A DNA stretch of 15,410 nucleotides from positions 1 through 15,410 of the forward strand of contig JBLFWS010000072.1 in NCBI GenBank assembly GCA_047611865.1, given 5' to 3'. This DNA is from Chlamydiales bacterium (GTDB lineage Bacteria; Chlamydiota; Chlamydiia; Chlamydiales; JBDQID01). Shown piece after piece: positions 5,646 to 9,915 of the stretch; within the stretch, counting starts at the first letter, position 1; each line of letters starts with the position of its first letter. Below the pieces are notes generated by a model. That model had not been told where the DNA came from. It made no database searches and worked only from the letters and a program-made list of their open reading frames with translations. Both the position numbers and the translations under genes were made by a program.

Positions 5646-5672
5646 AATTAATAATTAATAATTAATAATTAA
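5646..5672. repeat. Short tandem repeat (AATTAAT)x3.9
   Basis: AATTAAT at 5646, 5653 and 5660 plus a partial copy at 5667; overlaps the stop codon of the last operon gene. Confidence 0.7.
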
Positions 5673-6345
5673 GCTTGCCCACGATTTCCGTCACACACCA
5701 TTCTTTTAACTTCTTTTGTGGAGGTAAAAGGGGTGATGAGAATTCGTGCTCTAAAATGTTTATGTCGCTCTCAATGTCCACATCGCTTAAAGGCTTAAGA
5801 TAAGTTATCTCACCGATAGCTGAAAAATTTTGAACCATTTGTTCTAGCGTTTTCTCCGAGCTATAAGTGACATCACTCCAGATCTCTTTGCTGACGGGTT
5901 TGGAACCCCCAAACAAATAAAAACCTCCGTCGTGTGCACCACCAAAAATAAAAGAGCTGCTCTGCTTCAACATCCCATGTGCCTGTACGATAATATCAGG
6001 AGTTATTTGTGGACTGTCAGCTCCTATTAAAAGTACTGACTGATGCTTTTTTAATAACGTCGAATAAACATAATCCAGACGCAAGCCAAGCCCGCCCTCA
6101 CCAGAATGCATTGCAGTCAAATTCTTCCAGATCGGCAGATTGACAGCTTCTTTTTCTGCCACAGCAAAATAAGGATGTAAGCGATTATTCAGAAGAGCTT
6201 TTGCACTCAGAACTACAGCTTCGCTAGCCTGAACACTTAGGAGATAAAATGCCTCTGCTTTTCCTTTTCCGATAGAAGCCGCGAGTCTTGATTTTACAGG
6301 AGATAGCCCCGGTGTTTTGACAAAAATTGCCACCGCCGTTGTCAT
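5662..6345 (-). CDS. DUF2064 / TIGR04282-like GT-A-fold transferase (CofC/nucleotidyltransferase-like), arsS-associated
   Basis: Motifs IFVKTPGLSPVKSRLA, LGLRL, LIGADSPQI, AHDGGFYL and LSDVD. The start overlaps the upstream stop (TAATG at 6347-6343). Confidence 0.85.
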   Translation of the reverse strand: MTTAVAIFVKTPGLSPVKSRLAASIGKGKAEAFYLLSVQASEAVVLSAKALLNNRLHPYFAVAEKEAVNLPIWKNLTAMHSGEGGLGLRLDYVYSTLLKKHQSVLLIGADSPQITPDIIVQAHGMLKQSSSFIFGGAHDGGFYLFGGSKPVSKEIWSDVTYSSEKTLEQMVQNFSAIGEITYLKPLSDVDIESDINILEHEFSSPLLPPQKKLKEWCVTEIVGKLNY

Positions 6346-7034
6346 TAAGTCCTCTTTCTAAAAAGGGTTTTGATCCATTCTGGAAATGCCTGTTTAATCC
6401 ATAAATACTGATGAGAGATCGTCACATAAAGCCAACCTTTGCATTGGTACTTTCGTGGACTCGTCAATAGTGTGCTACCTGTGTAGGACAGTCTAATGCC
6501 CTGTTGCTTTGCGTACCATACAAAAAGATGATCTTCGCCATATAACACATCCTCAGGATAGGCTCCTATTTTCTGAAAAAGCTCTTTTGATAGACAAAAC
6601 CCCTGATCTCCAAAAGGAATTCCCAATAAGTGAGAGCGCAGCCATGCTCCTGCTGCATTTAGCTTCATAAGCGATGAACCACCATAAAACTCTAAGTTAA
6701 AATAGTGCAAAGCCTCAGGAGATTGCTTAATCGATTGATACAATTTTGATACCGTATCCGGGACAAAGCGAGAGTCCGCATGGAGAAACCATAAATAGGT
6801 ATTGCTTGCAAGATCTGCCCCATAATTTAGTTGCTGCGCTCTCCCAGGTTTTGAGGGGATAAGCCTTACTGTTTTCCCTGAAATATTGAAGGAGGGAGCT
6901 TTTGCTCCTTCCGGGTAAACAAGGAGTAGCTCTACCCCATCGGGTAAAAGGGCCAGGTCTTCTCTTAATCTTTCTAAGCAATCTTCCTCAGGCTTCAAAG
7001 GAATGACCACAGACAGGTCGAGCATATCCCTCAC
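6345..7034 (-). CDS. GT2-family glycosyltransferase, TIGR04283-like, arsS-associated
   Basis: SVVIP, GRAQQLNYGA, LWFLHADS, PFGDQG, YGED and TSPRKY...GW motifs. The GTG start overlaps the upstream TGA (GTGA); alternative ATG at 7025. Confidence 0.87.
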   Translation of the reverse strand: MRDMLDLSVVIPLKPEEDCLERLREDLALLPDGVELLLVYPEGAKAPSFNISGKTVRLIPSKPGRAQQLNYGADLASNTYLWFLHADSRFVPDTVSKLYQSIKQSPEALHYFNLEFYGGSSLMKLNAAGAWLRSHLLGIPFGDQGFCLSKELFQKIGAYPEDVLYGEDHLFVWYAKQQGIRLSYTGSTLLTSPRKYQCKGWLYVTISHQYLWIKQAFPEWIKTLFRKRT

Positions 7035-7897: not shown

Positions 7898-8923
7898 TTA
7901 ACAACACGCCCCGGCGCTAAGTTCTCGAATCGTTTGAGGTGCACAATCGAAAGATCCATAGTGAGTAGAAAATTCGCCTAGCACATTGAAATACTTTTTG
8001 AAACGCGTCTCACTCAACATTTTAGCGGTATTTCCACATACAGGAACAGGAAGCCCCTTTTTAAATACGTGCTCGTCGTCTAAAACAAATTCATGACTTG
8101 CCCCTTCAAGAGACCCCAGATAATAAGCTACATGCCCGTAATTCTCGCATCGATCTTCAAAGTCGCATTTAAAAGCTCGGATCAAGATAGAATCAAAATC
8201 TATCATCCCTAACTTTCCCTCCACTTCAATGCTTTTAAGAGAAACATTGTGGCTAGCAAGAACTCGATAGTCCTGACATCCGACTTTTTGAAGCATCCGC
8301 CGAAAGTCTTCAATATACAAAGCGCCACTCAAACACTCTCCGAGAAGAACGGGATCTTCCATTAGTTCCTTAGAAATCCGTCTACTGGAAAAGATATCAG
8401 AAAAATAAAGTTCTCCACCTGGCTTTAATACCCTGAATATCTCGCTGAACACCCTTTCCTTATTAGCAGAAAGGTTGATGACACAATTAGAAACGACCAC
8501 ATCAATGGAGGCTTCTTCAATCAACTGTAAATCTTCAATATAGCTCTCATAGAACTCCACATTTGGAGAAGAATAGCCAAATTTGTCTGTGTGGTAGTCT
8601 AGATGTTTACGGGCTACAGTCAACTGTTCTAGTGTCATATCTACACCGATCACCCTGCCCTCCTCTCCCACGAGCTGTGACAAGATATAGCAATCACGCC
8701 CTGATCCACAGCCTAGGTCAAGAACCGTTGCCCCTTTTAGAGCAGACGGAATTGGAGATCCGCAACCATAGAACTTTGATATGATCTCCTCATGGATATT
8801 CGAAACATAAGGTCTTAAATATTTAGGAACTGCACCCGCAAGACATGCTGTGGTTTGGAGGTCTTTACTCGTTTCGAGTGTTTTTCCGTAATAGGTTTTT
8901 ACGTCTTGAAGAATTTGATTCAT
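7898..8923 (-). CDS. arsM: Arsenite S-adenosylmethionine methyltransferase (ArsM/AS3MT, long form)
   Basis: SAM motif VLDLGCGSGRD and IGVDMT. All four ArsM/AS3MT cysteine contexts are present (LQTTAC, FYGCG, VSNCVINL, LGECLSGA), plus a C-terminal CC. Adjacent to arsS. Confidence 0.88.
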   Translation of the reverse strand: MNQILQDVKTYYGKTLETSKDLQTTACLAGAVPKYLRPYVSNIHEEIISKFYGCGSPIPSALKGATVLDLGCGSGRDCYILSQLVGEEGRVIGVDMTLEQLTVARKHLDYHTDKFGYSSPNVEFYESYIEDLQLIEEASIDVVVSNCVINLSANKERVFSEIFRVLKPGGELYFSDIFSSRRISKELMEDPVLLGECLSGALYIEDFRRMLQKVGCQDYRVLASHNVSLKSIEVEGKLGMIDFDSILIRAFKCDFEDRCENYGHVAYYLGSLEGASHEFVLDDEHVFKKGLPVPVCGNTAKMLSETRFKKYFNVLGEFSTHYGSFDCAPQTIRELSAGACC

Positions 8924-8937
8924 GTTTTACCTTTAGC

Positions 8938-9915
8938 TTAAAGCAAAGAGCCTCCGCAGGAACTCCCGGTACCTGCGGTGCATCCATAGCAATGATTTCC
9001 AAATGCGATCTTTCCATCTATATCGCTAAGCTTTTCTATTTCCCAGATACTTAGATTCTTTCCATTAACAGGAATTTCCAGCATCTGATTAAAGTCACAG
9101 TCATAAATTTTCCCATCCCAACTGATCGACACCAACTCTGTACACATCACATTTTGTGCGGCCTTCCCATTAAAGTTATCGATGAGAATTTTCATATACT
9201 CCTCCAAAAAGCCCTTTCTTTTCAAGTAGCGCACATAACGTTTTATGGGCATATTGGTAATGGTGAATAAGCGGTTAAACTCTATGCCAAAATCTTCCCT
9301 CAATCTAACTTTGTAGTCTGATTCAAGCTGTTCTTGAGGAGGTGGCAAGTGCTCCCCTCCTGGGTTGTACACAAGGTTTAGGCTGAGTCCCGTTCCTTCT
9401 TTACCATACCCATGGTCATTCAAAAGGATGAGTCCTTGCAAGCTTTTGTCGAACGCCCCTTTCCCCCGCTGTGCATCTACATTGAGCTTTGAATAACAGG
9501 GAAGGGAAGCTACGATTTGAATCCTCTGTTCTGCTAAAAACTGAGCGGTATCCCCCTGCCCGACTTCAAATAAAACCGTAAGGTTACAGCGATCTATGAC
9601 CTCTTTTCCCATACCCCTGATACTTTGAGAAAAATAACGAAAGTGAGGATTGAGTTCAGGCGCTCCACCAGTGATATCGACAGTATGAATATCTGGCTCC
9701 TGTGCTAATAAGAGTAAAAGACGATCAATCGTTTCTCTGGACATGTTTTCTGTACGTAGAGGCCCAGCGTCCACGTGACAATGGCTACATGTCATATTGC
9801 ATTTCTTACCAATATTTACCTGTAGGATCTTGATACTAGAGCGCTTGATTTCTATCTTTTCTTGGGAGAGCTTCTGCGAAAAGCTCATTTGATCATTGAG
9901 AGTCAGCAAGGACAT
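8938..9915 (-). CDS. arsS: Arsenosugar biosynthesis radical SAM protein ArsS (TIGR04167/DUF3641-type)
   Basis: LQVNIGKKCNMTCSHCHV (CxxxCxxC), DITGGAPE, IDRCNLT, ASLPCY, LVYNP, ITNMPI, YDCDFNQM and the C-terminal HCYGCTAGTGSSCGG. Start moved to ATG 9915 (AAGGA RBS upstream) because the track's extension to 10005 runs through the pit remnant. Confidence 0.93.
   Translation of the reverse strand: MSLLTLNDQMSFSQKLSQEKIEIKRSSIKILQVNIGKKCNMTCSHCHVDAGPLRTENMSRETIDRLLLLLAQEPDIHTVDITGGAPELNPHFRYFSQSIRGMGKEVIDRCNLTVLFEVGQGDTAQFLAEQRIQIVASLPCYSKLNVDAQRGKGAFDKSLQGLILLNDHGYGKEGTGLSLNLVYNPGGEHLPPPQEQLESDYKVRLREDFGIEFNRLFTITNMPIKRYVRYLKRKGFLEEYMKILIDNFNGKAAQNVMCTELVSISWDGKIYDCDFNQMLEIPVNGKNLSIWEIEKLSDIDGKIAFGNHCYGCTAGTGSSCGGSLL

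Follow-up and report, generated by a model that had tools for sequence, protein, structure and literature searches.

Seaweeds contain their arsenic mainly as arsenosugars, which in food are a matter of regulatory concern. Which enzymes complete them, once the arsenic nucleoside DDMAA (5'-deoxy-5'-dimethylarsinoyl-adenosine) has been formed? This question is raised by a locus of a Chlamydiales bacterium, on contig JBLFWS010000072.1, which was analysed over its whole length of 15,410 bases (the window) and belongs to a 3.59-Mb genome of 272 contigs (estimated 95.5% complete, 2.5% contamination). Its minus strand carries, between 9915 (or 10005) and 5662, five open reading frames (ORFs) that run in the same direction and encode ArsS, ArsM, a homologue of MTAP, a family-2 glycosyltransferase (GT2) and a DUF2064 protein. 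The literature searched names enzymes only up to DDMAA, and an operon of this type offers one candidate for each later step. It is highly probable that the operon is an arsenosugar-type cluster. The whole reading, according to which it was transferred, ArsM and ArsS make DDMAA and the three other genes convert this nucleoside to a beta-riboside, is given an even chance. The informative part of the operon is the MTAP, by virtue of its altered motif and its linkage.

The accessible text of two reports on homologues (PMC13598754; bioRxiv 10.64898/2026.04.29.721666) states that ArsS adenosylates trivalent dimethylated arsenic, DMAs(III), to DDMAA. Its adenine "can then be removed", and the enzyme is not named in the accessible part of the second of these (bioRxiv 10.64898/2026.04.29.721666). 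A scheme of algal arsenolipid synthesis invokes a hypothetical "adenosyl nucleosidase", as far as the accessible part of PMC10456119 goes. In the literature searched (subscription papers and supplements lay outside it) no enzyme was found for the steps past DDMAA, nor anything that ties TIGR04282, TIGR04283, DUF2064 or a phosphorylase to arsenosugars; papers holding both "arsenosugar" and "phosphorylase" deal, by their titles and the openings of their abstracts, with human arsenic metabolism, toxicity or plants.

The identity of the first gene is, at the level of sequence, unambiguous. ArsS matches TIGR04167 with 432.4 bits against a curated equivalog cut-off of 300 (profile positions 2-303 of 303), and Pfam DUF3641 (187.6 bits) and Radical_SAM are matched as well. 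In an alignment of 39 sequences the cysteines of the CxxxCxxC motif (C39, C43, C46) fall in nearly invariant columns, and C258, C273, C309 and C312 of the Cys-rich C-terminal DUF3641 part are invariant; the adenosylation of DMAs(III) is assigned to the protein by family membership. ArsM aligns over residues 6-331 with solved arsenite methyltransferases (E 7.8e-95 to PDB 5EVJ, 5e-87 to 4FR0/4KW7), including the motifs ttAClag, yGCGsP, SNCVINL and LLGECLsGAL, and the cysteines in its AC, GCG, SNCVINL and GECL motifs are presumably the As(III) ligands. Both identities are regarded as credible, and the assignments that an earlier note had made from the DNA alone held up when hidden Markov model (HMM) searches were run. 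Fused forms of ArsS exist in which the partner is an ArsM-type methyltransferase, on either side of ArsS, or, in one case each, a flavin reductase domain and a CMD (AhpD-like) domain (P0135, P0160, P0166, P0177, P0186, P0235, P0238, P0266; P0134; P0167). No fusion of ArsS to MTAP was seen among the 19 long ArsS proteins scanned (of 150 representatives listed).

The five genes are closely packed. As read from the sequence, 14 nucleotides (nt) separate the arsS stop from the arsM ATG and 18 nt the arsM stop from the MTAP ATG; the MTAP stop TGA (7033-7031) is overlapped by a GTG at 7034-7032 (a GTGA junction), and the GT2 stop TAA (6347-6345) and the DUF2064 ATG (6345-6343) have one base in common (TAATG). 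The co-orientation and the four junctions on which the idea of a single coupled unit had been founded were thereby confirmed from ORFs and sequence. GT2 could just as plausibly start at an in-frame ATG (7025-7023) that lies 5 nt past the end of the MTAP gene, and coupling is tight with either start. The longest arsS ORF covers 8938-10005 (355 amino acids, aa), and its start was taken as the internal ATG at 9915 because the purine-rich stretch AAGGAAAGAGAG precedes this codon and the TIGR04167 match starts 22 residues after it. A consensus scan of the region returned 11 promoter-like sites (shuffles 11.5 +/- 3.8), with no internal excess, and 3 terminator-like sites (shuffles 4.7 +/- 2.4), again with no excess, so that an operon is not shown by such signals. 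The arrangement is considered to be beyond chance because the gene set recurs in unrelated lineages.

The MTAP homologue passes its family model marginally (TIGR01694, 279.6 bits against a cut-off of 274.85) and scores 237.9 bits against PDB 1V4N. The near-universal MTAP motif EGP(R/Q)FS is replaced by (D/E)GPRLG in the clade to which it belongs, the members of which are linked to clusters of the present kind. A residue-level alignment with 1CB0 places human F177 at L163 and S178 at G164 of the window MTAP, equivalent to F177L/S178G. For the human enzyme 15 active-site residues are given, F177 and S178 among them, with F177 touching the purine and V233 and V236 the methylthioribose (accessible part of PMC5738077). 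Of these 15 the window MTAP has two changed (F177 and S178) and, by offset mapping, 11 identical and two conservative. Both F177 and S178 are kept in 65 of the 67 non-cluster MTAPs. The clade is also marked by R227, Y228, G229, S231, Y103 and an inserted P215, and the first four of these sit just past the equivalents of V233/V236/L237, a position mapped from alignment end points and not from a printed alignment; by offset R227 and Y228 correspond to residues 239 and 240 of the human enzyme. In all, 14 positions are clade-specific when 17 clade rows are compared with 67 others, three long-branch rows (L176_9281, L169_1710 and L015, from a relative) having been left out of the comparison. In a tree of 87 MTAPs a single branch with moderate support (SH-aLRT 83) sets apart the 17 rows, namely 16 with observed linkage and L108, which was included on identity alone. 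The [DE]GPRLG signature is carried by 119 of the 120 homologues listed and by none of the 33 MTAP-family genes sited elsewhere in arsS genomes; two sister rows (L110, L111) have the signature and lack an arsenic context. A search for longer forms of MTAP (495-2000 aa) found only unrelated fusions, and P0304 (530 aa) combines part of an MTAP with unmatched sequence.

The linkage of this clade was followed in metagenomes, in the 80 loci that best matched the window MTAP. Where the MTAP is at least 54% identical, a GT2, DUF2064, ArsM, ArsC or radical-SAM (SAM, S-adenosylmethionine) gene stands alongside in 12 of 13 loci, the thirteenth (L108) being a contig of 4.9 kb that ends 0.5 kb further downstream; where identity is 50% or less, such neighbours occur in none of 67. 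Of 16 related loci, 12 have GT2 directly after MTAP, as the window does. If ArsS, ArsM, MTAP, GT2 and DUF2064 are written S, M, P, G and D, the window reads S-M-P-G-D, a Methylophilaceae metagenome-assembled genome (MAG; locus L018) S-x-x-M-P-G-D, locus L020 S-x-P-G-D and a Rhodospirillales MAG (L021) D..S-P-G, and marine metagenome contigs show DUF2064-ArsM-rSAM2-ArsC-MTAP-GT2. The full set is also present on the 1.67-Mb plasmid p1 of a soil isolate available in culture, Cupriavidus sp. KK10, in the order ArsM-ArsS-x-GT2-DUF2064-MTAP and with the MTAP motif DGPRLG (L178; NZ_CP073678.1, 978902-993687); this stretch came without listed features and its genes were typed by HMMs made in this analysis. 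That one gene set is met in several orders speaks for selection on this set and not for inherited synteny. In this respect the linkage of MTAP, GT2 and DUF2064 to arsS or arsM in other genomes, in shuffled order, agrees with what had been anticipated.

In the marine metagenome clusters the place of ArsS is taken by rSAM2, as it is called here, a radical SAM protein that has about 305 aa and lacks DUF3641; compared with the N-terminal 169 residues of ArsS, it shows 25% identity. It is full length in L098, L100-L104, L106 and L112 (for example L103:6632-7558) and cut in L099 and L107. Its best NCBIfam match is the "Rv1681 family" with 84-117 bits, far under the cut-off of 380. These clusters hold DUF2064, ArsM, a thioredoxin-type ArsC, a GPRLG MTAP and GT2, and ArsC stands immediately before MTAP in L103, L104, L106 and L107. 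rSAM2 may be a second, undescribed arsenic-adenosylating enzyme.

Seen from ArsS, the picture is broader. The 39-sequence alignment, used as a query, retrieved at least 596 ArsS-encoding stretches in species-representative genomes, and the best 80 were examined with flanks of up to 10 kb, as far as the contigs reached; neighbours were counted within 7 kb of arsS with HMMs built from the window proteins and their matches. The 80 loci cover Proteobacteria, Nitrospirota, Planctomycetota, Acidobacteriota, Bacteroidota, Myxococcota and others. GT2 is near arsS in 29 of them, ArsM in 23, DUF2064 in 22 (plus two fused DUF2064-GT2 ORFs) and MTAP in 4, and a GT2-DUF2064 pair lies beside arsS in 22. Three of the arsS-linked MTAPs (L018, L020, L021) are close to that of the window (56-63% identity), and their ArsS proteins are among the most window-like. 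For the neighbourhood survey that the earlier note had proposed there are two figures: an MTAP at least 54% identical has such genes beside it in 12 of 13 metagenome loci, and an MTAP of any type accompanies arsS in just 4 of 80. Genome-wide co-occurrence was considered as well. Where arsS and GT2 are both present, 22 of 25 genomes have an MTAP-family gene at another site, vs 13 of 25 without GT2 (26 further loci without GT2 stood outside this count). When 33 of these 35 genes were typed, 14 of 21 in the GT2 group were of GPRLE type and 9 of 12 in the other group of EGPxFS type; the difference is confounded by phylogeny and was rejected as evidence because MTAP types follow taxonomy.

Around the clusters with arsS or MTAP some accessory genes are met repeatedly: in 25 loci an FAD oxidoreductase of the PRK06370 type, in 9 a small protein of the CMD family and in 6 DUF547, as well as VTT/DedA proteins and a fatty-acid-hydroxylase/OlsE-like membrane protein, the last in 8 of 80 arsS loci by HMM and in 17 loci by BLAST cluster. 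Examples are L102:4802-6322, L076:401-1252, L059:5867-6202, L065:11007-11828 and L100:1131-1808. None of these five kinds of gene is found within the window.

The last two genes belong to families which NCBIfam already names "arsenosugar biosynthesis glycosyltransferase". TIGR04283 is the sole NCBIfam match of GT2 (164.6 bits, profile positions 1-208 of 221), beside Pfam Glycos_transf_2 (30.5 bits), and TIGR04282 is the only one of the DUF2064 protein (118.7 bits), which passes Pfam DUF2064 with 60 bits against a cut-off of 25.8. The link of the two genes to arsenosugars is therefore existing annotation and not a new one. An AlphaFold2 model of the DUF2064 protein, made from a 26-sequence alignment (mean pLDDT 95.7), was compared with the PDB by Foldseek. 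It is most similar to 3CGX, a solved member of its own family with no function assigned (E 6.5e-15, TM 0.83), followed by Rv2983/FbiD, MM2497/CofC and 3-phospho-D-glycerate guanylyltransferase (TM 0.65-0.72); KdsB, IspD, glucose-1-phosphate cytidylyltransferase and GlmU match as well. Beyond 3CGX and a few unannotated entries all the Foldseek matches listed are nucleotidyltransferases, and no glycosyltransferase is among them. The model thus supports nucleotidyl transfer as the predicted function of DUF2064, contrary to its NCBIfam name, and the fold leaves the choice between a sugar 1-phosphate and a C3 phosphate as substrate undecided. Two single ORFs, L036:11077-12372 and L054:10980-12314, from a Thermoanaerobaculia MAG and a Planctomycetaceae MAG, join an N-terminal TIGR04282 to a C-terminal TIGR04283, both halves being above the curated cut-offs. 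The CofC model TIGR03552 matches the fused proteins at 46-55 bits, and the GT2 half of the L036 fusion shows a weak match to GpgS (39 bits). The suggestion of a CofC/nucleotidyltransferase-like DUF2064 protein was borne out by the fold and is accompanied by these fusions.

The cluster has probably been acquired by horizontal transfer, since ArsS above the cut-off was found in none of 40 same-order relatives and an IS30 transposase lies nearby, about 1 kb beyond the end of the operon, which fits such an acquisition. The closest relatives of the ArsS and the MTAP are proteobacterial or from marine metagenomes (56-68% identity), and an MTAP-like gene is present in 2 of the 40 relatives. In one same-order relative (L015; G023:C100) mtnA, the MTAP-like gene, queE and queC stand in a row, a canonical salvage context unlike that of the window. 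MtnA was not found in the window's genome, at its estimated completeness of 95.5%, so the MTAP is without the mtnA salvage context; MtnN was not found in this genome either. AhcY, which deals with S-adenosylhomocysteine (SAH), is present, and the only other gene of the purine nucleoside phosphorylase (PNP) family encodes a 6-oxopurine PNP. Each of the three genomes whose cluster MTAP is close to that of the window has, at another site, a second enzyme that cleaves 5'-methylthioadenosine (MTA), namely a GPRLE-type MTAP in L018 and MtnN in L020 and L021.

It can be proposed on these grounds that ArsM would methylate As(III) to DMAs(III), which ArsS would adenosylate to DDMAA. The clade MTAP would then phosphorolyse DDMAA to adenine and 5-deoxy-5-dimethylarsinoyl-alpha-D-ribose 1-phosphate; that it acts on an arsenic nucleoside is judged somewhat better than an even bet. 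In the following step DUF2064 would couple the arsenoribose 1-phosphate to a nucleoside monophosphate, giving a nucleoside diphosphate (NDP)-arsenoribose, and GT2 would move the arsenoribosyl group onto a glycerol-type or lipid acceptor; for these two steps as written the chance is put just short of even. GT2 is an inverting family in CAZy, so the product would be beta-linked, as in natural arsenosugars. The common glycerol arsenosugar has the beta configuration in its name and a glycerol-derived aglycone, according to the accessible part of PMC6656958. The generalisation that (D/E)GPRLG enzymes are DDMAA phosphorylases, which together with the CofC-like DUF2064 give a nucleotide-activated arsenic sugar that GT2 transfers to glycerol-type or lipid acceptors, is tentative, the odds leaning somewhat against it.

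Several observations weigh against this proposal. Only ArsS reaches an arsenosugar-type cut-off: GT2 (164.6 vs 182 bits) and the DUF2064 protein (118.7 vs 134) stay below the curated values of TIGR04283 and TIGR04282, and ArsM scores 178.7 vs 263 with NF008823 and 110.4 vs 400 with NF038099, the arsenosugar-type ArsM. Both changed active-site residues of the MTAP are at the purine-binding site and not in the 5' pocket, and alone they are no pointer to an arsenic substituent; leucine at the F177 position is found also in the GPRLE-type relatives elsewhere in arsS genomes, which may resemble methylthioinosine phosphorylases. The fourth arsS-linked MTAP, that of Psychrobacter (L065), is of the canonical EGPQFS type and is encoded on the other strand, 25 of the 29 loci with arsS and GT2 are without a cluster phosphorylase, and with an MTAP in only 4 of 80 arsS loci phosphorolysis cannot be a universal cluster-encoded step. 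Sugar-1-phosphate nucleotidyltransferases match the DUF2064 model less well (TM 0.43-0.57) than CofC/FbiD, its closest structural relatives, which activate three-carbon phospho-acids, and in the rSAM2-type clusters DUF2064 does not adjoin GT2. No enzyme assay for any step after DDMAA was found in the literature searched. The description of the operon as a complete pathway was therefore overstated, since the three late steps are ones that we infer and the MTAP is so seldom found beside arsS; gene identities, linkage and fold have stood, so that the earlier interpretation is partly supported, with the reservation that its GT2/DUF2064 component was in NCBIfam already.

Canonical MTAPs accept 5'-deoxyadenosine, and each cluster with this MTAP also has a radical SAM gene, ArsS or rSAM2; the enzyme might thus be a cleaner of by-products, removing 5'-deoxyadenosine from uncoupled SAM cleavage or MTA, both inhibitors of SAM enzymes, with no role in building the sugar. 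The lack of another MTA- or 5'-deoxyadenosine-cleaving enzyme in the window's genome speaks for such a role, but three genomes keep the cluster MTAP despite a housekeeping MTAP or MtnN, its tightest neighbour is GT2 and not the radical SAM gene, and the remodelled active-site motif of the clade would be needless for plain salvage. Moreover, ArsM gives SAH, which is dealt with by the AhcY of the genome, and ArsS puts the adenosyl group into its product, 5'-deoxyadenosine being only a side product (accessible part of PMC13598754). Pure by-product removal is on balance rather unlikely. Somewhat more weight, although it too is regarded as unlikely, is given to the possibility that the MTAP removes adenine while DUF2064, in the manner of CofC/FbiD, uses GTP to activate the aglycone, a C3 phosphate (for example glycerol phosphate, phosphoglycerate or phosphoenolpyruvate), and GT2 joins the halves in an undefined way, for example towards phosphodiester-type arsenosugars or arsenosugar phospholipids. 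The ranking of the Foldseek matches, with FbiD, CofC and the guanylyltransferase directly after 3CGX and the sugar-1-phosphate enzymes weaker, agrees with this, as do the TIGR03552 matches of the fused proteins, the recurrence of the fatty-acid-hydroxylase-like membrane protein in arsS loci and the glycerol-derived aglycones of arsenosugars (accessible part of PMC6656958). On the other hand a CofD-like phosphotransferase was not seen in the clusters, GT2 normally needs a nucleotide-activated sugar donor, which would be left unexplained, and the DUF2064-GT2 fusions fit consecutive steps on one substrate.

It is also conceivable, but improbable, that the product is another organoarsenical or a compound of another metalloid, for example a lipid-linked or modified 5'-arsenic nucleoside derivative, and not a textbook arsenosugar. 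Close relatives of the MTAP lie in clusters where a distant radical SAM protein without DUF3641 replaces ArsS, the accessory genes differ by locus (FAD oxidoreductase, fatty-acid hydroxylase, DUF547, VTT/DedA, P450), and three proteins of the window are under their curated equivalog cut-offs. Nevertheless the ArsS is far above its own, the cysteine motifs that bind As(III) are retained in ArsM, and the core set is the one tied to arsenosugars by NCBIfam. A chance juxtaposition, or a contig that is a binning contaminant, might be suspected from the fragmented assembly with its estimated contamination and from cluster proteins most like proteobacterial ones. The first gene of the contig (CcsB-like, 37-1146), however, is 73-74% identical to genes of one same-family and another same-order relative, so that nothing obvious marks the contig as a binning error, and several unrelated lineages have the gene set too; this explanation is hardly credible.

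The features discussed are collected in Table 1. Outside the operon, a dual-specificity phosphatase (Pfam DSPc, 93.6 bits) is encoded at 4761-5450 on the same strand, 211 nt downstream. Its use as a last, dephosphorylating step was considered and dropped, as no homologue was found in the 160 surveyed loci, and it is probably unrelated to the pathway. A tandem repeat (AATTAAT x 3.9, 5646-5672) overlaps the DUF2064 stop codon, and a run of TAA x 5.7 lies at 5532-5548, in the spacer ahead of the phosphatase gene. Three large ORFs, at 1122-3419 (-, 765 aa), 10286-11794 (+, 502 aa) and 11791-14586 (+, 931 aa), gave no family match in Pfam or NCBIfam that passed the threshold; for the 931-aa protein nothing was found in the 40 relatives at E 1e-10, and it has only a weak paralogue on contig C119.

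Table 1. Genes of the putative arsenosugar-type operon and the nearby transposase, in coordinates of the window
Feature	Position	Strand	Basis and remarks
arsS, radical SAM/DUF3641 enzyme	8938..9915	-	TIGR04167, Pfam DUF3641, Radical_SAM; upstream ATG alternative at 10005
arsM, As(III) S-adenosylmethionine methyltransferase	7898..8923	-	homology to solved ArsM structures
MTAP-like nucleoside phosphorylase, (D/E)GPRLG clade; predicted DDMAA phosphorylase	7031..7879	-	TIGR01694, clade tree
family-2 glycosyltransferase (GT2), TIGR04283-like	6345..7034	-	TIGR04283, Pfam Glycos_transf_2; possible ATG start 7025
DUF2064/TIGR04282-like protein, CofC-like nucleotidyltransferase fold	5662..6345	-	TIGR04282, Pfam DUF2064, AlphaFold2 model, Foldseek
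IS30-family transposase, context only, outside operon	3622..4614	+	NF033563 296.7 bits (cut-off 80)

The practical value of the locus lies in the GPRLG signature, by which the candidate phosphorylase can be recognised in genomes and metagenomes, and in Cupriavidus sp. KK10, a carrier of the full set which is open to genetics. If the proposed reading is true, five genes suffice for the synthesis of an arsenosugar from arsenite, and a nucleotide-activated arsenic sugar is a kind of metabolite never described. It would also mean that genes for arsenic sugars move between phyla, here into a small-genome Chlamydiales bacterium, and that the name of TIGR04282 should be corrected from glycosyltransferase to a nucleotidyltransferase fold.

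Among the nearest known systems is the ArsM/ArsS pair of Synechocystis sp. PCC 6803, with which the window has in common the adjoining arsM and arsS (co-transcribed in Synechocystis according to the accessible part of bioRxiv 10.1101/2022.09.23.509062) and a TIGR04167 ArsS with radical SAM and DUF3641 parts; it differs in three more coupled genes, a non-phototrophic host and a seemingly acquired cluster. The arsenosugar set of NCBIfam (TIGR04167, TIGR04282, TIGR04283, NF038099) is matched by four of the five window genes, whereas only the ArsS passes its cut-off and the set has no MTAP-type family. With MtnP/MTAP (TIGR01694; 1V4N, 1WTA, 2A8Y, 1CB0) the window enzyme shares the equivalents of the phosphate, ribose and Asp220/Asp222 residues (T8, R50, H51, S83, A84, M183, T184, T206, D207, D209), and it departs from them by F177L, S178G, the further clade residues, a one-residue insertion, the missing mtnA partner and a context of arsenic, not of salvage. 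CofC/FbiD, KdsB, IspD, GlmU and glucose-1-phosphate cytidylyltransferase have the fold of the DUF2064 protein, but similarity in sequence is marginal. Finally, the proposed order of reactions is that of the familiar logic of a phosphorylase or kinase, a nucleotidyltransferase and a Leloir glycosyltransferase, and of glucosyl-3-phosphoglycerate synthase, with the difference that the sugar 1-phosphate would here bear arsenic and be derived from a nucleoside which a radical SAM enzyme has formed.

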